From assembly GCA_016872815.1 (NCBI GenBank), contig VGYY01000003.1, positions 1 through 47,244 of the forward strand: 47,244 nucleotides of DNA, written 5' to 3'. Positions 37,119-47,244 of the stretch are shown one piece after another. This stretch comes from Planctomycetota bacterium. GTDB taxonomy: Bacteria; Planctomycetota; B15-G4; SIAN01. The position numbers and the translations under genes are program-made. The number at the start of each line of letters is the position of its first letter. The first letter of the stretch is position 1. The notes beneath the pieces were generated by a model. The model was not told the origin of the DNA. It saw nothing but the letters and a program-made list of their open reading frames with translations, and did no database searches.

Positions 37119-39023
37119 ATGGCGTCGCGAAACCGGTTGGCGTTGCTGCCGTGGCTCTGCGTGGCGGTGGCGCCGGCGCCGGCGCAGGAGAGCGGAGCCG
37201 CGGACGCGCAGGACGCGGCGGCGCCGGCGGCAGCCGCGCCCGCGGTGGCTGGCTACGAGCACTCGGTGCCGGGCAACGTGCTGCTGTACGCCGGCGTCGA
37301 CTCGTTCGACCAGTTGCTGGCCGACTTGGCAGCCTCGGCGTACGGGCGGCTGCTGCAGGACGAGGCGGCGAAGCCGGTGCGTGACGCGTTCGCGCGGTTC
37401 CTCGAATCGCTGGCGGCCGCCTCGAAGGAGGAGAGCGGATTCGACTTCGTCGACGCCACCAGGAGGATCGACGGGCGGATCGGCTGGTCGCTGAGCGGCG
37501 ACCTCGACCGGGTGCAAGACACCGAGATGGTGGTGGCGCTCGAGTCGAGCGAGCACGCCGCCGAGCTCCATGCCCTGGCGATGGCGGCGGTCAACACGCA
37601 TGTCGAGCGCGGCGACGCGATCTTCAAGAGCGAGGCGATCGGCACGCGCGAGGTGGTGCAGCTCACGCCGATGGACAGCGCGGACAAGGGGCGCTTCCGG
37701 ATGGGCGTGGTCGGATCGACGATGGCGCTCGGCATCGCGACCGGCGCTGCCGTCGACGGCGATCAGTACATGCGCTTCGTCCAGGCCCTCGACGGCGAGG
37801 GCGGCGAGTCGCTCGCGATGCGTCACGACTTCGCGCAGTCGCTGGCGGCGCGGGCCGGCGGCGTGAAGTTCTGGCTCGACACCGGCCGGGCGGTGCGTGA
37901 GCAGATGACGCCGCCGGCGGCCGATGGCGCGGAGTCGCCCGACACGCGGCTGACGCGGGCGCTCGGGCTCGACCAGCTCGGCGCGCTGTCGGCGCGATTG
38001 CAGCTCGATGCGTCGGAGATGCGGCTCGACGCACAGCAGACGTGGACGCCGGTCGGTCTGGCCAAGGTGCTGACGGCATTCCTGTCGGGGGGCGAGCACG
38101 CGCTGCTGACGCTGGTGCCGGCGGAGGCCGCGACCGCGATCTCGCTGCGGCTCGACCTGCCGGCGGGGCTCGACGCGGCGGAGGCGCTGGCGAAGGAGGC
38201 GGGGCTCGGGTCGCTGTTCGGCGAGCCGGCGGCGGAGGGGGCGGCGCCGGGCGCCGAGGCCGAGGAGTTCCATCCGCGGCGCGACCTGCTCGATCACCTC
38301 GACGGGCGCCTCGCGCTGAGCGTGGTCGAGGTTCCGGAGGACGAGTCGCTGATGGGCATCGGGATGCAGGGCGGGCCGTCGGTGAACACCGCCTTCATCC
38401 TCGGCGTGCGCGACGCGACCGCGCTGGCGGCCTCGCTCGACCGGATGTTGCGCAAGCAGGGCATGCACGCGGCGCGGCGCAAGAGCGAGTTCGAGGGGTA
38501 CGTCGTCTACTCGCTGCCGCTCGGCATCCTGACCGTCAACTACGCGATCGTGGACGACTTCATGGTGGTGTCGCCGTCGCCGACGCTGCTGCAGGACGTT
38601 CTGCGCCGGAAGAGCAACCGTGAGCTGCCGAGCCTCAGGACGTCACCGGCGTTCATGGCGAGCTTCGACGCGCTCGCGGCGGCGCCGGCCCTCGCCGTGT
38701 GGAGCAGCACGACCAGCGACGTCATGGAGGGGTTGCGCGGGGCGATGCTCGGTGAGGGGATCGACCCGGCCTACGTCGAGGGCGACGAGGAGGGCGGGGC
38801 GTTCGGCGGCGAGCCGGGCGGCGATGAGGCCGACCCCGTCGGCGCGCTCGAGCCGGACGAGCGCGGCTCGTCGGGCGGCAACCTCGAGTCGCACGCCATG
38901 GCGATGATCGACGCCTTCAGCGCCCTCGATCCGAAGCTGCTGCTCAAGTACCTCCCGGCCGGCCAGCTGCTCGCGCTCCGCTGCGACCAGGCCGGCGCCC
39001 ACTTCGAGATCGTCGCGCGCTGA
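37119..39023 (+). CDS. Exported hypothetical protein (DUF3352-like)
   Basis: AGGAG RBS overlapping the upstream stop; signal peptide; two related halves (VPGNVLLY / LVPAEAATA). The family call is tentative. Confidence 0.6.
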   Translation: MASRNRLALLPWLCVAVAPAPAQESGAADAQDAAAPAAAAPAVAGYEHSVPGNVLLYAGVDSFDQLLADLAASAYGRLLQDEAAKPVRDAFARFLESLAAASKEESGFDFVDATRRIDGRIGWSLSGDLDRVQDTEMVVALESSEHAAELHALAMAAVNTHVERGDAIFKSEAIGTREVVQLTPMDSADKGRFRMGVVGSTMALGIATGAAVDGDQYMRFVQALDGEGGESLAMRHDFAQSLAARAGGVKFWLDTGRAVREQMTPPAADGAESPDTRLTRALGLDQLGALSARLQLDASEMRLDAQQTWTPVGLAKVLTAFLSGGEHALLTLVPAEAATAISLRLDLPAGLDAAEALAKEAGLGSLFGEPAAEGAAPGAEAEEFHPRRDLLDHLDGRLALSVVEVPEDESLMGIGMQGGPSVNTAFILGVRDATALAASLDRMLRKQGMHAARRKSEFEGYVVYSLPLGILTVNYAIVDDFMVVSPSPTLLQDVLRRKSNRELPSLRTSPAFMASFDALAAAPALAVWSSTTSDVMEGLRGAMLGEGIDPAYVEGDEEGGAFGGEPGGDEADPVGALEPDERGSSGGNLESHAMAMIDAFSALDPKLLLKYLPAGQLLALRCDQAGAHFEIVAR

Positions 39024-39027
39024 ACGG

Positions 39028-40431
39028 TCACGCCACCCGCGGGCCGGTCGCGACGGCCGGCCGCCGCGACTCCGCGCCGAAGGTGACGCCGGCGGCGCGC
39101 AGCAGCTCGAACGGCGGCGTGCCGCCGGCGAAGACGAGCACGTGGTCGTTCGGCAGCGACAGCGGGCGCTCGCCGCCGTCGATGGCGACTCGCAGCTCGA
39201 CGCGGTCCGGCTCGATCGCGACGACTTCGCTGCCGAACAGCACCCGCACGCCACCGGATCGCTCCGCCGCGACGATGCGCTGCTCGTTGCGCGGCTTGAG
39301 CCGGAAGAACGCCTCCTTCCGGTAGGAGAGGGTCACGCGGTTCCCCGGTTGCGCCGCCAGCGCCAGCGCCGCTTCCACCGCGCTGTCGCCGCCGCCGACC
39401 ACCAGCAGATCCTCGCCGCGGTGGAGCGCCGCATCGACCAGGCGGTACGCGACCTTCGGCAGCTCCTCGCCCGGCACGCCGAGCTTGCGCGGAGTGCCGC
39501 GCCGCCCCAGCGCCAGCACCACTGCCCGCGCCCGCAACTCGCCGCTCCCCCCCGCATCGCGCCAGCGCACCGCGAAGTCGCCGCCCGCCTCGGCGCGTGA
39601 CACGGTCTCGACGCGGGTCCGCGTCTTCAGCCGAAGGGGGAATCGCCGCGCCGCCTCGTGGAACAGCTCGACCAACTCCTCTTTCCGGTACTCGCTCCTC
39701 GTCAATCGGCCGAGCAGCGGCAGCTCGACCGGCTGCGTCATCACCAGCTTGGCGCGCGGGTAGTGGAGGATGGTCCCGCCGAGCTCTTCCTGTTCGATCA
39801 GCACGTGCGATCGCTTGCGCTCGATGCAACGCAACGCCGCCGCCAGCCCCGCCGGTCCGGCGCCGACGATCGCGACGTCGACGCTGCCGTCGTCAAGGCG
39901 TGCTGCGCCCGGCCTGACCGGCGCCGCGCCGCGGCCGCCGTCCCGTGCCGCGATCGCGTCGATCGCGGTCGTCGCCTGCGCCACCGCATGACGGATCAGC
40001 GCGATCCCCGACAGCTCGCCGGCCAGGTAGAGCCCCGGCACGACCGACTCCTGGGTCGGCGACAGCACCGGCACGTCGTCGCGCTCCGCGAGGGAGCCGA
40101 GCCCGACGGCGATCGCGCCGACGGGGCATGCCGTCTCGCAGCGACCGTGGCCGACGCAGCGCGAGCCATGCACGACGCGCGCGATGCCTTCCAGCACCGC
40201 CAGCACCCCTTCCTCCGGGCAGGCCTTCACGCACAATCCGCAGCCGACGCACTGCAGCGGATCGATCTGCGGATGCTGCGCCAGCGGGCGATGCGAGCCG
40301 CGCGTGCGCGCCTCCTCGAGGTCCGCGACCGCCGCCAGCTCGAGCCGCCGCGCCGCGCGCCGCTCGAGCCATGCGATCAGCGCCAGCAGCGGCACCAGCA
40401 CCGCGATGAACCCGAGGATCGTCGTGCCCAC
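39028..40431 (-). CDS. Membrane-anchored 2x[4Fe-4S] ferredoxin fused to an FAD/NAD(P)-dependent (TrxR/YpdA-like) oxidoreductase
   Basis: N-terminal TM; CVGCGLCVKACP and CVGHGRCETACP; VAIVGAGPAG; VVGGGDSAVEAA; SYRK. Confidence 0.9.
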   Translation of the reverse strand: MGTTILGFIAVLVPLLALIAWLERRAARRLELAAVADLEEARTRGSHRPLAQHPQIDPLQCVGCGLCVKACPEEGVLAVLEGIARVVHGSRCVGHGRCETACPVGAIAVGLGSLAERDDVPVLSPTQESVVPGLYLAGELSGIALIRHAVAQATTAIDAIAARDGGRGAAPVRPGAARLDDGSVDVAIVGAGPAGLAAALRCIERKRSHVLIEQEELGGTILHYPRAKLVMTQPVELPLLGRLTRSEYRKEELVELFHEAARRFPLRLKTRTRVETVSRAEAGGDFAVRWRDAGGSGELRARAVVLALGRRGTPRKLGVPGEELPKVAYRLVDAALHRGEDLLVVGGGDSAVEAALALAAQPGNRVTLSYRKEAFFRLKPRNEQRIVAAERSGGVRVLFGSEVVAIEPDRVELRVAIDGGERPLSLPNDHVLVFAGGTPPFELLRAAGVTFGAESRRPAVATGPRVA

Positions 40432-40443
40432 TGCGGATCGCCC

Positions 40444-42228
40444 TCAGAAGCGCCAGGTGAGTCCGAGGTCGAGACCGGTGGTGTCCTGCCGGTCGCCGAA
40501 ACCCTTCGCCGCGCGCGCCCACGCCGTCGTGCGGACGCCGGCCTGCCACGTCGCGAACAGCGACAGCGTGTTCGAGAGGAAGGATTCGCCGCCGTCGATC
40601 TCGAGCGAGGTCGTGTCCCAGCCGAAGCGCAGCAGCCACGCCGCCGCCGGCATCCAGGTGACCCCGGCGCTGGCGCCGAGCCCGTCCTGGTCGACGCCGA
40701 CCAGGTTGAACAGCGCCAGGTCGCCGCCGAACGCGGCGCTCGAGAGCAGCGTCGCATCGCGCCCGCGCAGGGTGACTTGCAACTCGCCGGGCGTGCCGTC
40801 GCCGGTCAGCCACGCCGCCTCCTGCTCGAGCGCCGCGCCGCCGCCGAACGACTCCACGGCGGCCAGTGCCGCGCGCGTCCGCCCGCGTCCGTAGCTCGCG
40901 TCGTTCGGCGCGACCGCGCGCAGCGACTCCGTGTCGGGGTTCTGCCAATGCGACCACGACGGCCGCAACGCCAGGAGCTCGCTCGCGCGCCACCAGCCGG
41001 TGACGTGGAGCCGCGTCACGCCCACTCCGCTGCGCCCCGCGTCGCCATCCCCGTCGGCGTCGAGCTGCGTCGAGGCGCGCAGCCAGTGGCCGCCGCTGAA
41101 GTTCGCCCCCAGGTCCGCCAGCAGGGCGTGCTGATCGGCGTCGCCCTCGTACCAGCTGGCCAGCGCTCCGAGCGCGCCATTCCAGCGCGTCCCGCCGCCG
41201 GTCCGTCCGTCGAACGCGGTCCACCCCGCCGCCACCCACTCGTCGGCGCGTGGGCCGAGGTCGTCGCGATCGGGCCGCAGGCCGAGCGCGCCGCCGACGC
41301 GGACCCCGTCGCCGAGCACCCGCTCGCCGTAGCCGCCGTCGAGTCGGCCGATGCCCGGAAGCGCATGCGGCAGGAAGCGGCCGACGCCGAGCACGCTCCC
41401 GTCCTCGAAGTGGCGGCGCACCAGCAGCGTGTCGGCGCGCAACCGCCAGCGGTCCTGCTGCGAATCGTCGGCGTAGCCGTCGCCGCTGCGCCGGTTCAGG
41501 TCGAAGCGCCACTGCAGCGACCACGGGCCGTCGCCGAGCCGTTCGACTTCGCCGCTGGTGAACAGGCGCAGATTCACGTAGTCGCGGCCATTCTCGTCGT
41601 CGGCGAGCCAGCTGGTGGCGAGCCCGGCGCTGCCGTGCAGGTAGTTGCCGCGCGACTCGGCTGGCGCCGCCACGGCGGGCGCGAGCAGCGGCGTGAACGG
41701 CCGCTCGACGTCGCCCGCCGCCGCGCGGTCCGGCGTCGCCGGCGCCCGGGGCGCCGGGCGCGCTGGCGGCACGATGCCACGGAAGAGGACGCGGTCCCCG
41801 GCGGCTGGAGCGGCGTCCGCCTCGAGTCGGGTGACCACCGCGAAGCACGACGTCGCCGTCGCGTGGCGGACCTCGACCTCGCCGAGCACCCGACCGTCGC
41901 GCTCGATCGTCCCGCGCGCGCCGGGCTGCACGCCGGCATCGGTGCCGGTCGCGAGGTAGAGGCCGTCGGCGGCGACCTGCGCCACCGGAGCAGCGAGGTC
42001 GCGCGCGAAGTCCACGCCTTGCGGTGCCGAAGGTGCGGGGGACTCCTGCAGCGGCGGCGCGAGCGCACTGGCTGCCGCCGCCGGCGCCGCGGCGCACAGG
42101 TGGAGCGCGACGGGTGCGGCTGCGCCCGCAGCGAGCCCGCGCCATCGGAGAGACCGTGCGCACCGCGCTGCGCGCCCGGCGCGCGCCGCATGGCGCGTCG
42201 GTGCAGTCGCCCGTCGTCGCTCGCTCAT
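40444..42228 (-). CDS. Putative outer-membrane beta-barrel protein
   Basis: ATG 42228 overlaps the upstream TGA; long signal-like N-terminus; amphipathic alternating strands rich in G/W/R/D; C-terminus GLDLGLTWRF with terminal Phe. Confidence 0.65.
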   Translation of the reverse strand: MSERRRATAPTRHAARAGRAARCARSLRWRGLAAGAAAPVALHLCAAAPAAAASALAPPLQESPAPSAPQGVDFARDLAAPVAQVAADGLYLATGTDAGVQPGARGTIERDGRVLGEVEVRHATATSCFAVVTRLEADAAPAAGDRVLFRGIVPPARPAPRAPATPDRAAAGDVERPFTPLLAPAVAAPAESRGNYLHGSAGLATSWLADDENGRDYVNLRLFTSGEVERLGDGPWSLQWRFDLNRRSGDGYADDSQQDRWRLRADTLLVRRHFEDGSVLGVGRFLPHALPGIGRLDGGYGERVLGDGVRVGGALGLRPDRDDLGPRADEWVAAGWTAFDGRTGGGTRWNGALGALASWYEGDADQHALLADLGANFSGGHWLRASTQLDADGDGDAGRSGVGVTRLHVTGWWRASELLALRPSWSHWQNPDTESLRAVAPNDASYGRGRTRAALAAVESFGGGAALEQEAAWLTGDGTPGELQVTLRGRDATLLSSAAFGGDLALFNLVGVDQDGLGASAGVTWMPAAAWLLRFGWDTTSLEIDGGESFLSNTLSLFATWQAGVRTTAWARAAKGFGDRQDTTGLDLGLTWRF

Positions 42229-43340
42229 TCCTTTCCCCGCGGATGGCAGGCGTAGCACTGCGGGCTGCTCCAGCTGTAGCCGCCGACGTCGTCGTGCTCG
42301 TCGTCCATCTCGGGCTTCGAATGGGCGTGACAGTGGGTGCAGGAGAAGGTCGGGTAGGTGCCGGTGGTGTGGCAGTCGCTGCAGTTCAGCGCGTGCGGGC
42401 CGGTCAGCGGGAAGGCGCTGCCGTGGTCGAAGCCGCCGCGGCCCCAGCCGATCGGCGTGTGGCAGTCCTCGCAGGTGGTGCCGAAACCGGCGGCGGCATG
42501 GTCGGGGTCGCTGGTCGCGGCGTAGTCGGCGGCGTGGCAGCTGAAGCAGTCGCGCGGCGTGCCGGAGTAGATGCCGCCCGCGTGGCAATCCGCGCAGGCG
42601 GCGGCTCGATGCCGGCCCTGGAGCGGCCACGAAGGATGGGAGTAGTGCGCGGCGCTCCACGCCGTCGGCGAATGGCACCGCTGGCACGAGCGGACGTCGC
42701 CGAGCGCCGCGTGATCGGGATCGCTCGCGGCGGCGAGGTCGTCCTGGTGGCAATCGACGCACTCGATCGAGGCGCCGACGAAGCGGCCGACGCGCGCCTG
42801 CTCGTGGCAGCGGTCGCAGGCCGCGGCGGCGTGGGCGCCGGAGAGCGGAAACCGGGTGCGTGCATGCTCGGCGATCCGTCCGGTCGGCTGCCAAGTGGTG
42901 GTGTCGTGGCATTGCGTGCAGTCGGCGCCGAGCGTCGCCTCGTGCGGATCGACGTGGCAGCCGCCGCAGCCGCGCACCGCGAACTCGCGCACCGGTCCGC
43001 GATCGTTGTGGCAGCGCAGGCAGGCGGCGGTCGCATGGGCGCCCTCGAGCGCGACGCCGGTCTGCGCGAGGTGGTCGAAGGCGAAGCCGGGCTTGAGCAC
43101 GTCCCAGCGCTCCGGGACATGGCACAGCGAGCAATCGCTCGGAAAGGTGTGGTGCGGCACCAGCGGCCCGAATCGCCGTTCATTCCATGCCTGCCGTGGC
43201 ACCGTTCCGATCGAGTGGCAGGCGACCAGCAGCGCGATCGCCAGCGCGACGAGCCCGCCGCGAGCGCGGATGCGAGGCCGCAGCGGATGCGGATCCGCGG
43301 GATCGGGCGATCGCGACCCGCAGGGCTCACCGTCCGGCAT
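42225..43340 (-). CDS. Multihaem cytochrome c lipoprotein, 13 CxxCH
   Basis: Lipobox LVAC; 13 CxxCH counted; repeated FPLxGxH distal-His motifs. The start codon is uncertain. Confidence 0.9.
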   Translation of the reverse strand: MPDGEPCGSRSPDPADPHPLRPRIRARGGLVALAIALLVACHSIGTVPRQAWNERRFGPLVPHHTFPSDCSLCHVPERWDVLKPGFAFDHLAQTGVALEGAHATAACLRCHNDRGPVREFAVRGCGGCHVDPHEATLGADCTQCHDTTTWQPTGRIAEHARTRFPLSGAHAAAACDRCHEQARVGRFVGASIECVDCHQDDLAAASDPDHAALGDVRSCQRCHSPTAWSAAHYSHPSWPLQGRHRAAACADCHAGGIYSGTPRDCFSCHAADYAATSDPDHAAAGFGTTCEDCHTPIGWGRGGFDHGSAFPLTGPHALNCSDCHTTGTYPTFSCTHCHAHSKPEMDDEHDDVGGYSWSSPQCYACHPRGKE

Positions 43341-45171
43341 GGCAATCACGGCATTCGACTCCGAGCGGGACGTAGTGGATCCGTTCACGGCCGTCCGGCA
43401 GTCGCGTCCGCGGGTGGCAGGCCGCACAGGCGAGGCGGGCGTGGACGCCGTCGAGCGCGAAGCGCGCGTCGCGCGCATGGTCGAAGGTCACGGGCAGCCA
43501 GCGCTCGGCCGAGCGGTGGCACGTGTTGCAGTCGTTGCCGTGCCGGGTGAGCTGGCCGTCGTGGGGATCGGCGTGGCACGACTTGCAGGTCTGCGGGGTC
43601 GCGGCGAATCGCCGCACTCCGTTCGCATCGGGCAGGTGGCAGCGGTTGCAGGCCACGGCGAGGTGCGCGCCCTCGAGCGGAGGCCGGTGGCGCATCGCGG
43701 TGAGCCGCGACGGGGCGAAGCGCTCCTCCGTGTGGCAGGCGGCGCAGCCTTCCGGCCTGGGAGCGAACTGCCCCGCATGCGGATCGGCGTGGCAGCCGGC
43801 GCAGTCGCTGGGCGTGCCGACCCACCGCACCGGCGCTCCGGCGCCCGGTGCACGGTGGCAGTCGCTGCACCGCGCGCGCGCGTGGGCGCCGGCGAGCGGC
43901 GGATGCCGCGCCGCGAAGTCGTAGCGCGATGGCCGGAAGCAACCGGTGTCGTGGCAGGAGCTGCAGGACGGGTCGGTGGCGCGGAACTGCCCGCCGTGCG
44001 GATCGCCGTGGCAGTCGGCGCAGGCGGTGGGCGTGCCGACGAAACGGACGGCGGTCGCCGCGCCGGCCACGGCGCCGCCCGCCGCATCCGCGCGGCGATG
44101 GCAACCGCTGCAGGCGACGGCGACGTGCGCGCCGGTCAGCGGCGGGACGTGGTTCGCCGGGTCGATGCGCGAGGCGGAGAAGCTCGCGTCGTGGCAGGCG
44201 GCGCAATCGGCTTCGCGCGCCCCGAACTGGCCGCCGTGCGGCGAGCGATGGCAGGCGCTGCAGTCGCCGGCGGCGCGACCGGGAAAGCGGGCGTCGAAGG
44301 CGGCGGGCCGATCGGTGCCGGCGTGACAGCTCGCGCAGGCGAGGTCGGCATGCGGTGCGGTCAGCGGAAAGCCGGTCGCGGCGTGCGCGGCGGCGCCGAA
44401 ACGCGGCGCGGCGGCGTTCCAGTCGGCATCGATCGCGAAGTGGCAGTCGTCGCAGCGACCCGGCAGCGATGCTCGGTGCGGCGAAGCGTGGCAGTCGGCG
44501 CAGCGAGTCCCCCGCACCGAGGCGAAGTCGAGCTCGGCGCCGCGCGGGTGGCAGTCGCTGCAACCGGCTTCCGCGTGCGGCCCGAGCAGCGGGAAGCGGC
44601 GCGAGTGCTCGAAGCGGGCGGCCGGGATGAAGGCCTCCTGCGCGTGGCACGCGGCGCAGTCGTCGCTCATGGCGCTGCCGTGCGGGTCGGCATGGCAGGT
44701 GGCGCACTCCTGTGCCAGCCCGAGGAAGGAGGTCGCCGCGCGTTGCTCGTGGCAATCCGCGCAATCGAGGGCGGCGTGTGCGCCGGCCAGGGCGAAGGCG
44801 ACGTGCCGGTGGGCGGAGGCGAAGTCGGGCGGTGTCCCGCCCCAGGAGAGGACGTTCACCAGCGGGAAGTCGGCGCCCCAATGCTCGCCGTGGCAGCGGT
44901 CGCAGTCGCGCACGCCTTCGGCGAGGCGCGCGCCGTGCCAGCCGGTCGCGCTCCTGAGCTGCGCCGCGATCTCGACGTGGCAACCGCCGCAGCCGTCCGC
45001 GAGGCCGGTGGCGGTGTGGCAGCGTTCGCAGCCGGCGAGGCCTTCGAGCTCCGGCAGTCGCGCATGCGCCGCGGCCAGCGGTCCGGGGCTCGGCGATTCG
45101 CGGGCCAGCTCGACCGAGAGGCCGAGCACGGCCAATGCCAGCAGCGCAGCCACCGCGGTGTGAGGCCTCAA
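43327..45171 (-). CDS. Multihaem cytochrome c, 23 CxxCH
   Basis: TTG 45171 overlaps the upstream TGA; N-terminal signal/anchor followed by SPGPLAAAH; 23 CxxCH counted in tri-haem repeats. Confidence 0.9.
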   Translation of the reverse strand: MRPHTAVAALLALAVLGLSVELARESPSPGPLAAAHARLPELEGLAGCERCHTATGLADGCGGCHVEIAAQLRSATGWHGARLAEGVRDCDRCHGEHWGADFPLVNVLSWGGTPPDFASAHRHVAFALAGAHAALDCADCHEQRAATSFLGLAQECATCHADPHGSAMSDDCAACHAQEAFIPAARFEHSRRFPLLGPHAEAGCSDCHPRGAELDFASVRGTRCADCHASPHRASLPGRCDDCHFAIDADWNAAAPRFGAAAHAATGFPLTAPHADLACASCHAGTDRPAAFDARFPGRAAGDCSACHRSPHGGQFGAREADCAACHDASFSASRIDPANHVPPLTGAHVAVACSGCHRRADAAGGAVAGAATAVRFVGTPTACADCHGDPHGGQFRATDPSCSSCHDTGCFRPSRYDFAARHPPLAGAHARARCSDCHRAPGAGAPVRWVGTPSDCAGCHADPHAGQFAPRPEGCAACHTEERFAPSRLTAMRHRPPLEGAHLAVACNRCHLPDANGVRRFAATPQTCKSCHADPHDGQLTRHGNDCNTCHRSAERWLPVTFDHARDARFALDGVHARLACAACHPRTRLPDGRERIHYVPLGVECRDCHAGR

Positions 45172-46064
45172 GGCAGCAACTCGCGCAGCGACCATTCGCG
45201 GAAGCGCAGCTCACCCCAGCGGATCGCCAGCGCGACATGGCAGAGCGCGGTGCCGACCATCACCAGCGCCAGCCAGCGATGGAGGAAACGCCAGGAGGCC
45301 ATCAGCGCGGTCAGGTCGTTGAGGCGCTCGAGGCGGTCGGCCTCGCGCAGGATCGCGGCGAGCTGCGGCAGGACGCGCGAGCGCGTGGCGGCGTCGGGCT
45401 CGGCCTGCTCGAAGCGCGCGCGCCAGGCGCGGGCGGTCGCGCGCGATGCGGCGTCGCCCAGCAGGACGCCGCGAAGCGCCCGCAGCTTCGAGCCGGTCGT
45501 GACCGGGGTTGCGGCCGGCCGTTCGAGCGGCGGGAGGCCGAGCTCGGCGAGGCGCGCGCGCAGGGTCTCGAAGCGTGCGTGCGCCTCGTCCAGCGACAGC
45601 GCGTGCCCCTCGCGCGTCCGCGGGATCTGGGCGAGGACGTAGCGGCCGATCAAGCCGGTCACGAGGACGATGCCGAGGGCGGCGCTGGCCATGGTGGCCG
45701 ACGCGCTGCGGAAATCGCCCGCGGAATGGAGCGCGACGCAGCCGCCGGCGAGAAGACCCGAGACGACGTGGAGGTCGAGCCAGCTGCGGATCGAGCCGGC
45801 CCAGCTGGCGGCGAGGAGCCGACGGCGAACGAGGTAGAGCAGGTTCAGGAGGATCAGCGCGACGGCGATGACCCCCAGCGCAAGCCCGAGGGGGCCGCTG
45901 GAGCGCAGTCGTTCATGGCGCGAATCGAGCGCCTGGACCGCGAGCGGGGCCTGGTAGTAGCTGCACTCCCGCCATGCAAGGAGTGCCAGCGCGAGCAAAC
46001 CTGACGTGAGCAGGATCGACGCCACGAGCGGCGTGCGGCGCGGTCGTTCGGGCGATGGCGGCAT
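45168..46064 (-). CDS. Cytochrome b-like/ferric-reductase-like membrane protein
   Basis: Several TM helices with four His in paired helix positions: WLDLHVVSG / ALHSAG and WRFLHRWL / LCHVAL. Confidence 0.7.
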   Translation of the reverse strand: MPPSPERPRRTPLVASILLTSGLLALALLAWRECSYYQAPLAVQALDSRHERLRSSGPLGLALGVIAVALILLNLLYLVRRRLLAASWAGSIRSWLDLHVVSGLLAGGCVALHSAGDFRSASATMASAALGIVLVTGLIGRYVLAQIPRTREGHALSLDEAHARFETLRARLAELGLPPLERPAATPVTTGSKLRALRGVLLGDAASRATARAWRARFEQAEPDAATRSRVLPQLAAILREADRLERLNDLTALMASWRFLHRWLALVMVGTALCHVALAIRWGELRFREWSLRELLP

Positions 46065-46277: not shown

Positions 46278-47244
46278 TCATCGTGGTCGCAGGCGGGCGT
46301 GGCGGATCTGGACCGAGCCGGGCGCGTCGGCGGGGAGCTCGAAGCCGATGCCGCCGGCTGCCGGGCCGTCGCGGTCCTCGTTGTCGACGGTGATCGAGCC
46401 GTTGAGGCGCACGGTGATCCGGTCGCCGCGTGCCTCGATCAGGAAGTGGTTCCAGCCGGTGCGCTCGGGCAGCGGCCACCAGATCTCCTGGCGCGGCTGG
46501 ACGATCACGCCGCGGCCGCCGAGGTCGCGCAGCCGACCCCACGCGCTGCGGCCGCCGTCGACGGCATAGCCGCGCGTCCCCTGCCCCTGCGCACCCGCAT
46601 CGCTCCGGAACCAGCAGGAGTAGAGCTGCTCCTTGTCGCCGAGGCGCGCCTCGAACTCGAAGGCGAAGTCGGCCGGAGCGCTGATCACGGCGGCGCCGCC
46701 CGCGGTCGCCGGGAGCGCCTGCCACGCCGCCGCCTTCGCCGGCTCGACGATCTTCGGCGCCAAGAGCCAAGCGGTGAGGTCGGCGATCTGCTCGTAGCTC
46801 AGCGCGTCGAGCAGCCCCTCCGGCATCACCGACTTGGTGGCCGGCCGGCGCCGCTCGATCTGCTCCGCCTTGAGGTCGACCTGCTCGCCGCGCAGGTCGA
46901 CGAGCAGCACGTGGCGCTCGTCCGCGACCAGCGGCATGCCGGAGACGATGTCGCCGTTCTTCAGGATCACGTTCAGGCCGCGGTACTGGTCGGAGATCGT
47001 GCGCGACGGCGCGAGGATCGACTCGAGCAGGTCGCGCGGCCCGAAGCGCGCGCCGATCGTGGTGAGGTCGGGTCCGACCGCCTTGCCCCACGACCCGCGC
47101 AGGTGGCACTTCGAGCAGAGCTCCTGGAACAGGAGTCCGCCGTCGGGCAGCGAGCGGTGCGGCGCGTCCAGCGTCCGCTCGACGAAGGTCAGCACCCGGT
47201 CGAACTCGCGCGGCTCTGCCGCCGCCGCCGGCGCCGCGGCCGCC
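46278..47244 (-). CDS. C-terminal part of a PVC-type haem-binding (CxxCH) protein with a DUF1080-like domain; partial
   Basis: The frame is open to the window edge; CSKCH, GPDLTTIG, LLESILAPS and SVMPEGLL, then WNHFLIEARGDRITVRLNG and GGIGFEL. Confidence 0.85.
   Translation of the reverse strand, partial: AAAAPAAAAEPREFDRVLTFVERTLDAPHRSLPDGGLLFQELCSKCHLRGSWGKAVGPDLTTIGARFGPRDLLESILAPSRTISDQYRGLNVILKNGDIVSGMPLVADERHVLLVDLRGEQVDLKAEQIERRRPATKSVMPEGLLDALSYEQIADLTAWLLAPKIVEPAKAAAWQALPATAGGAAVISAPADFAFEFEARLGDKEQLYSCWFRSDAGAQGQGTRGYAVDGGRSAWGRLRDLGGRGVIVQPRQEIWWPLPERTGWNHFLIEARGDRITVRLNGSITVDNEDRDGPAAGGIGFELPADAPGSVQIRHARLRPR

Follow-up and report, generated by a model that had tools for sequence, protein, structure and literature searches.

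A five-gene operon of Planctomycetota proposed to link cytoplasmic NAD(P)H to the cell surface through a multihaem conduit

To our knowledge, every well-studied Gram-negative electron conduit takes its electrons from the quinone pool by way of a quinol dehydrogenase such as CymA, ImcH or CbcL. Shewanella MtrCAB, MtoAB/PioAB and the Geobacter OmaB-OmbB-OmcB and Ext conduits all join an outer-membrane barrel to periplasmic and external lipoprotein cytochromes, and the same logic is apparent in the five-gene operon that we analyze here, which differs in carrying a dedicated NAD(P)H-type flavoenzyme where the Mtr, Mto and Geobacter systems use those quinol dehydrogenases. The operon lies at 39028-46064 of a 47,244-nucleotide stretch of contig VGYY01000003.1 (Planctomycetota bacterium assembly GCA_016872815.1; the whole stretch is hereafter the window) and encodes an inner-membrane protein (IMP), cytochromes with 23 and 13 haem sites, a predicted outer-membrane barrel and a membrane-anchored reductase. 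The best explanation of these five genes is that they form one trans-envelope electron-export machine, with four outer parts of the PCC3 type described below and an inner end that resembles NOX and is made of different parts.

The PCC3 class was defined from genomes, with its function untested, by He et al. 2017 (Front Microbiol 8:1584; PMC5566968), who described a porin, two multihaem cytochromes, of which one is extracellular (median 34 haems) and the other periplasmic (median 21), and an IMP of ~300 amino acids (aa) and five helices, with SGXXG on the fourth transmembrane helix (TM4) and WX3HX13H on TM3 and TM5, which they likened to the ferric-reductase domain. Gallionellaceae PCC3 clusters are reported with 21, 24 or 27 periplasmic haems and 10-35 in the extracellular cytochrome (PMC10734462), and those of Sideroxydans CL21 with 24+14 and 24+12 haems in four genes whose function is there called unverified (10.1101/2025.02.27.639646). 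Four of our five parts fit this scheme, namely the barrel, the long cytochrome (23 haem sites, and 20, 23 or 26 in relatives), the second cytochrome (13, putatively extracellular) and the five-helix IMP with two WX3HX13H motifs, a likeness of architecture and motifs that was drawn from published descriptions and not from sequence comparison. Differences are found in the TM4 motif, which is SGXXG in PCC3 and TGxxG here (Thr for Ser), and in the long-cytochrome haem counts, which follow 3n in PCC3 and 3n+2 here. Moreover, PCC3 comprises four genes, occurs in Alpha-, Beta- and Gammaproteobacteria and has a proposed quinone link, whereas here the hosts are Planctomycetota and a fifth gene, for the reductase, was recovered at every locus, at some of them fused to the IMP gene. 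The terms 'FAD' and 'pyridine nucleotide' are absent from the main text of He et al. 2017 (PMC5566968; supplements not covered), and the literature that we searched, supplements excluded, held no published description of a reductase link or of a reductase::IMP fusion. What sets the system apart is the constant and sometimes fused reductase, which joins a TM helix, a ferredoxin and a thioredoxin reductase (TrxR) fold, and the conduit itself is of an already predicted kind. An earlier reading of the window, made without database searches (the sequence-only reading), had held that the system would be distinct, which stands in so far as no experimentally characterized complex matched it but not for the conduit architecture, already predicted as PCC3.

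Four further published candidates were compared and set aside. The Verrucomicrobia porin-multihaem cytochrome (MHC) cluster (PMC5615132) has a periplasmic cytochrome of eight haems; the cytochromes described for PCC4 are three periplasmic ones (4, 5 and 10 haems), with none outside the cell (PMC5566968); the available description of the peat EET1-4 clusters (10.64898/2026.05.27.727921) mentions no inner-membrane or NAD(P)H component; and the 'PCC3' of PMC13013709 is a term used in a different sense.

All five open reading frames (ORFs) of the operon are co-directional on the minus strand and together span exactly the interval given above (Table 1), with transcription running from the IMP through the 23-haem cytochrome, the 13-haem cytochrome and the barrel to the reductase. 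The junctions bear out the sequence-only claim of one tightly coupled operon, with overlaps of 28 nt between the IMP and 23-haem genes, 14 nt between the two cytochrome genes and 4 nt (ATGA) between the 13-haem and barrel genes, followed by a 12-nt gap before the reductase. A motif count placed 23 + 13 = 36 CxxCH sites in the two cytochromes and none in the IMP, barrel or reductase, and found no CX3CH or CX4CH motif in any of the five proteins. That reading had also named a 4-His membrane protein, 23- and 13-CxxCH cytochromes of which the latter is a lipoprotein, a barrel candidate ending in WRF and a TM-anchored Fe-S/FAD/NAD(P) reductase, and each of these is recovered by the motif counts and lipobox, the barrel model and the reductase domain matches reported below. 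It had further named four findings that would overturn its interpretation (a 40444-42228 product that is no barrel, a reductase domain on the periplasmic side, genes that do not co-occur elsewhere, and a match to a characterized complex); each was checked and none emerged.

Table 1. Coordinates of the operon genes and of other features discussed in the text.
Feature	Position	Strand	Description
IMP	45168..46064	-	298 aa; five predicted TM helices; two WX3HX13H motifs (TM3, TM5)
Long cytochrome	43327..45195	-	622 aa; 23 CxxCH; N-terminal hydrophobic segment
Second cytochrome	42225..43340	-	371 aa from ATG 43340; 13 CxxCH; lipobox LVAC
Outer-membrane beta-barrel (predicted)	40444..42228	-	594 aa from ATG 42228; homologues 547-563 aa
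Membrane-anchored reductase	39028..40431	-	467 aa; TM helix, ferredoxin-like domain, TrxR-fold FAD/NAD(P)H domain
Upstream gene	46278-47243, runs past window end	-	One CxxCH (CSKCH) near N-terminus; further C-terminal domain
Haem-copper oxidase subunit I match	G000:C136:3581-5170		COX1, 490.9 bits; window's genome
Haem-copper oxidase subunit I match	G000:C297:1205-2452		COX1, 227.3 bits; window's genome
Stand-alone fused reductase::cytochrome b	L048:8014-10329 (G284:C2)	+	771 aa; Fer4, Pyr_redox_3, weak Ni_hydr_CYTB/Ferric_reduct

To evaluate whether the five genes belong together, we compared 27 distinct relatives' loci (8 first neighbourhoods, 18 more and two named records of metagenome-assembled genomes, or MAGs, with L025 and L040 being one locus), all of which were selected through barrel or IMP matches and never through the reductase. 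The synteny search of these relatives recovered the five genes together in 27 of 27 loci, save that one (L016) is cut by a contig end inside the long cytochrome, before the IMP, and that the barrels of two (L032 and L036) were missed by tblastn and recovered by the profile search. Because the five-gene set is conserved in this way, chance is excluded as an explanation of its presence in the window. Wider searches gave a similar picture. Among 300 genomes sampled across the phylum, the IMP profile matched in 64 genomes at E<=1e-8, the barrel profile matched in 59 at E<=1e-6, and the strong IMP matches fell at 60 places in 42 genomes, 51 of which (places) had a barrel match at most 9 kb away on the same contig. 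Full-length barrel matches occurred in seven of 61 relatives' genomes besides the window's own, and a search for related loci with a 13-sequence barrel alignment returned 6, all of them MAGs. The named homologues belong to Planctomycetota, Kiritimatiellales, Acidobacteriota and Gemmatimonadales MAGs, with related barrels or IMPs also in Acidobacteriota, Kiritimatiellales, Myxococcota and Gemmatimonadota records; the ESM Atlas adds, as leads only, unnamed clusters from Planctomycetota, Acidobacteriota, Myxococcota and Gemmatimonadota. That the closest records are Planctomycetota MAGs agrees with the planctomycete origin that had been judged probable beforehand. Searching 72,556 plasmids with the IMP and barrel by tblastn gave no match.

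Three gene orders occur among these loci while the set is kept. The window's order, IMP-cyt23-cyt13-barrel-reductase (order A), recurs in L013-L017 and L026. In order B, reductase-IMP-cyt23-cyt13-barrel (L018-L020, L037-L039 and L041-L044), the reductase adjoins the IMP, and in L025/L040 it is divergent from it. In order C, reductase::IMP-cyt23-barrel-cyt13 (L027-L036), one unbroken frame encodes both proteins at 9 loci out of 10, the tenth (L035) shifting frame within the reductase part. The fused proteins of order C are 725-768 aa long and match Fer4, Pyr_redox_3 and, weakly, Ferric_reduct or DUF4405, and their layout is topologically coherent, with the anchor helix starting outside, the catalytic body in the cytoplasm and then the first IMP helix entering from the inside. 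That the two genes have fused, and that the set has stayed whole through rearrangement, points to the reductase and the IMP working together directly and is the strongest evidence for this short of experiments; as natural proteins, the fusions also give direct genomic support to the step from NAD(P)H through FAD and Fe-S to haem b that the sequence-only reading had postulated. One further fused gene (Table 1) adjoins gcpE (GcpE = IspG) and has no CxxCH-rich ORF and no barrel within ~9 kb, so that the inner-membrane module exists outside the conduit too.

Variants on this theme were seen in a few genomes. A group that we call family f26 (L045-L047; G303:C20, G275:C283 and G246:C190) has its reductase 2.1-2.8 kb from the IMP, cytochromes of 26 and 10 haems, a barrel that matches the profile in its N-terminal domain only and an IMP frame with an apparent long N-terminal extension; among four ORFs scanned in the reductase-IMP interval of L047, two of them in the wrong frame, none had a Pfam match. 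A same-genus genome (G001) has the cluster twice, with the window's order at L013 and the fused type C at L027 (G001:C28), and the window's own genome holds a single copy by the barrel and IMP profile searches.

Pfam assigned Pyr_redox_3 (137.8 bits), Pyr_redox_2 (96.6 bits) and Fer4 families to the reductase, and the nearest solved sequences were YpdA/Bdr (7a7b, 8.7e-41), thioredoxin reductases and the TrxR-type ferredoxin-NADP reductases (3ab1 and others), such that the nearest solved relatives of the flavoprotein are all NAD(P)H users. Its score against the YpdA model TIGR04018 was 145.3 bits, under the equivalog cut-off of 339.9, and it shares with that protein the fold family only. Both nucleotide-binding motifs, GxGxxG for flavin adenine dinucleotide (FAD) and GGGDSAxEAA for NAD(P)H, are invariant across 17 homologues. 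An S-Y-R-[KR] stretch after the latter resembles what we take to be the 2'-phosphate site (HRRxxxR) of NADPH-specific thioredoxin reductases and is a hint only. There are two iron-sulfur motifs: the first, C61xxC64xxC67xxxC71P, is present in the 17 homologues, and the second, C92xxH95xxC98xxxC102P (encoded in the region of 40150-40156 of the window), has His for the usual second Cys in 16 of 17, a pattern that hints at either a [4Fe-4S] cluster with a His ligand or a [3Fe-4S] cluster at one end of the chain. No conserved redox CxxC was found outside the Fe-S motifs in these homologues. The protein shares the two-Rossmann FAD/NAD(P)H fold of YpdA/Bdr and the TrxR-type ferredoxin-NADP+ reductases but differs from them in its added N-terminal membrane anchor, its fused ferredoxin domain and its lack of a conserved redox Cys beyond the Fe-S motifs. 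It can be read as a TrxR-type ferredoxin:NAD(P)+ oxidoreductase to which a ferredoxin has been fused.

The orientation of the reductase was assessed from the residues around its N-terminal helix. Lys and Arg are absent upstream of the helix in 16 of 17 homologues, 2-6 of them follow in the next 15 residues, and no Tat or Sec-type n-region was seen at the N-terminus. Because of this charge bias, the helix is predicted to be an N-out anchor without a Sec or Tat signal that leaves the catalytic body in the cytoplasm; a reductase domain facing the periplasm is predicted neither by the charge bias nor by the layout of the fusions. A complex prediction for the IMP with the reductase (two haems, two 4Fe-4S) gave a score of 0.01, with a mark of 0.32, and speaks neither for nor against binding.

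The putative partner of the reductase, the IMP, is best characterized by its invariant residues. In an alignment of 22 sequences, W95, H99, H113, W258, H262 and H276, which make up the two WX3HX13H motifs, are invariant, as are G137 and G140 on the helix between the two motifs, where the TM4 motif reads T136-G137-x-x-G140. These bis-His pairs have the same spacing as those of ferric-reductase-domain proteins. An AlphaFold2 (AF2) model (pLDDT, the predicted local-distance difference test, 81.9) places helices at residues 10-32, 58-82, 92-113, 121-146 and 248-283; TM4 and TM5 are separated by ~110 residues of helical insertion. Mean charges are 2.4 K/R at the N-terminus, 4.4 K/R with 0.0 D/E in the TM2-TM3 loop and 20.4 K/R in the large loop, a pattern from which we predict an N-in topology with the large TM4-TM5 loop in the cytoplasm, which would set H99 and H262 near the inner face and H113 and H276 near the outer face. 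Pfam matches were weak and confined to dihaem-b families. Of the 22 homologues, 19 matched Ferric_reduct (best E 1.2e-4), 15 matched DUF4405 (PF14358) at E<=0.01 (best 1.8e-7; the window's IMP is not among them) and 5 matched Ni_hydr_CYTB, a quinone-reactive cytochrome b family. Binding of haem b has been shown for purified DUF4405 (PMC11334425; Huang et al. 2024, mSystems 9:e00375-24). On the strength of its motifs and these family hints, and not of its fold, we propose that the IMP is a dihaem b-type cytochrome moving electrons across the cytoplasmic membrane.

Viewed together, the reductase and IMP invite comparison with two kinds of membrane oxidoreductase. With NOX, FRE, SpNOX and MsrQ+Fre they would share the path from NAD(P)H through flavin to a stacked pair of b haems, whose His ligands lie 13 residues apart on each of two helices, and so across the membrane. 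The dehydrogenase here, however, has a TrxR fold with a 2x[Fe-S] ferredoxin domain and not the FNR fold of NOX, it is separate or N-terminal in fusions and not C-terminal, and the membrane part has five helices plus one anchor helix in contrast to the six-helix core of NOX. By its domain composition the system is not a NOX, although it would work like one. The DUF4405, PepSY-like and MsrQ-like flavinylation-associated cytochromes are likewise small, with four central His and haem b, and are proposed as an electron exit from the cytoplasmic membrane (PMC11334425), but where the DUF4405 type is partnered by ApbE and flavinylated extracytosolic proteins, the IMP is accompanied here by multihaem c cytochromes and a barrel, together with a flavo-Fe-S reductase predicted to be cytoplasmic.

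Beyond the cytoplasmic membrane, the long cytochrome is built of about seven c7-like triplets plus one pair of CxxCH, with Pfam matches to Cytochrome_C7 (79.3 bits) and Cytochrom_c3_2 (71.1 bits). Across 26 relatives' loci with a complete gene, it has 20 CxxCH in 6, 23 in 13 and 26 in 7, a 3n+2 series. All 27 available N-termini carry PGx[LIFV]xxxH, and because this motif follows the hydrophobic segment, the N-terminal helix may be kept as an anchor beside the IMP. We propose that the 23-haem protein is a periplasm-spanning wire, possibly anchored in the inner membrane. The second cytochrome matches Cytochrome_C7 (52.1 bits) as well as Cytochrom_c3_2, ranges from 10 to 38 CxxCH in relatives, usually with a lipobox, and has a GP[LVM]VPHxxFP motif after the lipobox that is conserved in relatives; we propose, from these sequence features, an outer-membrane or cell-surface lipoprotein cytochrome. 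Neither cytochrome matched PDB sequences at E<=0.01 by phmmer. The DmsE/MtrA decahaem model TIGR03508 gave the 23-haem protein 36.6 bits against a cut-off of 192.2 and did not match the 13-haem protein.

Nine relatives' clusters (L019, L020, L027, L028, L031 and L036-L039) have an additional gene for an 11-CxxCH protein of ~920-1060 aa, usually with a lipobox and with a conserved ...AES motif upstream of its first haem. Where this gene occurs, the second cytochrome often has just 10 haems; the window's cluster is without it.

Turning to the barrel, the protein has a signal-like N-terminus and a small beta domain, which a conserved PFxPLLAP linker joins to a predicted 22-strand barrel, and its C-terminal TWRF is invariant in 5 of the 5 closest homologues. 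An AF2 model built from a 57-sequence alignment (residue numbers are those of the 562-aa form) had a mean pLDDT of 88.2 and a pTM (predicted template-modelling score) of 0.72, with 22 long strands over residues 164-561, the small beta domain at residues 44-120 and low confidence in the linker. Foldseek returned 292 matches to this model in PDB at E<=0.001, and the top neighbours were all outer-membrane barrels (the FimD/PapC ushers, Campylobacter MOMP, OprD/Occ porins and AlgE), with MtrB absent among the first 50. No Pfam or NCBIfam family matched the protein, MtrB_PioB included, which together with the low DmsE/MtrA score upholds the earlier impression that these proteins are unlike MtrA and MtrB. 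The MtrB barrel has 26 strands as compared with the 22 predicted here. A word-indexed search gave 5 relatives. When a profile was run against 1.84 billion representatives, 635 proteins matched at E<=0.001, of which 82 did so at E<=1e-30, and most had lengths of 520-600 aa. As modelled, the 40444-42228 product is a beta-barrel that forms a family of its own. Its N-terminal beta domain is matched without the rest of the profile in many other Planctomycetota genomes (partial matches, profile positions ~5-130) and is thus a separable domain that other proteins share; the nearest named ESM Atlas cluster to this domain is AMIN (score 0.88), which we treat as a lead only.

Building on the gene content, the motifs, the barrel fold, the conserved co-occurrence and the natural reductase-IMP fusion, we propose that the operon carries electrons outward from cytoplasmic NAD(P)H to the cell surface without energy conservation, by way of FAD, two Fe-S clusters, two b haems and the 36 c haems, a reading to which we give a probability of roughly 0.55. 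In this scheme, with each predicted cofactor site occupied, NAD(P)H would be the donor to the FAD of the TrxR-fold reductase, from which electrons would pass to its two Fe-S clusters, one of them with His at the place of the second Cys, and on to the cytoplasmic-side b haem (H99/H262) of the IMP. The next step would take them across the membrane, to the outer b haem (H113/H276), and from there into the 23-haem cytochrome, whose length would suffice for crossing the periplasm. Exit would be through the 22-strand barrel, with a cytochrome presumably sitting in it, and the 13-haem lipoprotein, to acceptors such as Fe(III), Mn(IV), humic quinones and possibly O2. We infer outward flow because electron movement from the negative inside to the positive outside is driven by the membrane potential, and because NAD(P)H reduces bis-His c haems, Fe(III), Mn(IV) and quinones downhill. 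Such a route pumps no protons and dissipates charge, and it would therefore serve as an electron sink or metal mobilizer rather than as an energy-conserving respiratory chain; likely uses are NAD(P)+ regeneration, reductive metal mobilization and extracellular reduction of humics or O2.

The host bears on this proposal as well. The window's genome has two matches to haem-copper oxidase subunit I (Table 1) and one to a ResB-type cytochrome c maturation protein, the latter counting in favour of the proposed route, and the stretch is contained in lake-water metagenomes, with 9 runs containing at least half of the sampled words, of which 3 are possibly the source; no RNA run is among those listed. 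Because of the two COX1 matches, the ResB match and the lake-water occurrence, the host is probably an aerobic or facultative freshwater organism, and a purely anaerobic respiratory role is therefore less likely.

Several observations weigh against the proposed NAD(P)H-fed route. PCC3 is known mostly from Fe(II)-oxidizers, where inward flow is assumed. An aerobic host would probably have little obvious need for an anaerobic-style electron sink, and all hosts are uncultured MAGs. At 9 of the 60 strong IMP places there is no barrel nearby, these being mostly short contigs or members of family f26. The window's IMP scored 20.4 bits against Ferric_reduct (PF01794), under the curated cut-off of 28, and Foldseek of its model against PDB gave no significant match (best E 0.74), with SpNOX at rank 39 (E 5.2, not significant), and the NOX-like fold is thus not confirmed structurally. 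Finally, a quinone site in the IMP is possible, and He et al. proposed a link between the equivalent PCC3 protein and the quinone pool (PMC5566968).

This last point leads to the alternative that survives best, albeit as an unlikely one, in which the operon encodes an ordinary PCC3-type conduit fed by the menaquinone pool and the reductase is an accessory, either as an optional second input or for maintenance of the b haems or Fe-S clusters. The match of architecture and motifs to a class with a hypothesized quinone link, the description of proteobacterial PCC3 as four genes without a reductase (PMC5566968), by which the conduit can exist alone, and the weak Ni_hydr_CYTB matches among the IMP homologues all speak for it. 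A dispensable accessory is hard to square, however, with a reductase that none of the 27 loci lacks and that 9 of them encode as a fusion with the IMP, and no quinone-site motif turned up in the IMP, though no search was aimed at one.

Less probable still is a function confined to the periplasm, in which the cytochromes would reduce a soluble substrate, for instance in the assimilation of chelated Fe(III) or with another oxidant, and the barrel would be a plain porin that lets this substrate in. Eukaryotic FRE ferric reductases use the same NAD(P)H-to-bis-haem logic in iron uptake, the stand-alone fusion of L048, which has neither cytochrome c nor barrel nearby, suggests that the inner module can serve other periplasmic acceptors, and the structural neighbours of the barrel include the substrate porins OprD/Occ and AlgE. 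Yet 36 haems and a lipoprotein cytochrome would be a heavy cost for a periplasmic reductase, and the barrel is specifically tied to the cytochromes (51 of 60 places) and belongs to its own family rather than to a general porin family.

Inward flow, in which the reductase would make NAD(P)H from electrons taken up outside the cell, whether from Fe(II), Mn(II), reduced humics or a mineral acting like a cathode, is very improbable: PCC3 clusters are common in Gallionellaceae Fe(II) oxidizers (PMC10734462), one PCC3 inner-membrane gene is up in iron-oxidizing Sideroxydans CL21 cells (10.1101/2025.02.27.639646), multihaem wires are reversible in principle and the window's genome has oxidases, but on bioenergetic grounds movement inward across two b haems opposes the membrane potential, reduction of NAD(P)+ (~-320 mV) from Fe(II) or humics is strongly uphill in a module that encodes no proton-coupled device, and in aerobic iron oxidation electrons are expected at the oxidase, not at a cytoplasmic flavoenzyme.

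Returning to the NAD(P)H-fed export route, its consequence is that the reductase shifts the predicted bioenergetics of the conduit from quinone-linked to NAD(P)H-linked. If true, this would be a different bioenergetic design, an electron sink that spends membrane potential to regenerate NAD(P)+. More tentatively, at somewhat less than an even chance, this would be the first diderm porin-cytochrome conduit hard-wired to cytoplasmic pyridine nucleotides and not to quinones, in effect a two-membrane 'bacterial NOX', with the fused reductase::cytochrome b as a portable export module. On that reading, such a system in oxic lake water could be one origin of the reduction of Fe(III), Mn(IV), humics or O2 (superoxide) that heterotrophs carry out outside the cell and that has lacked an explanation. 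Because the system is not rare (42 of 300 Planctomycetota genomes) and related proteins occur in several other phyla, it may matter to the redox turnover of iron, manganese and humics in soils and lakes. The fused reductase::cytochrome b proteins of 725-771 aa are single polypeptides and hence directly testable at the bench.

Around the operon, the genes flanking it are conserved in same-genus genomes only (three). The upstream gene (Table 1) is probably not part of the module, because it is conserved beside the operon only in those three genomes. On the other side, a plus-strand gene that ends at 39023 converges on the reductase gene, and the G+C content of the window is 67-76%.

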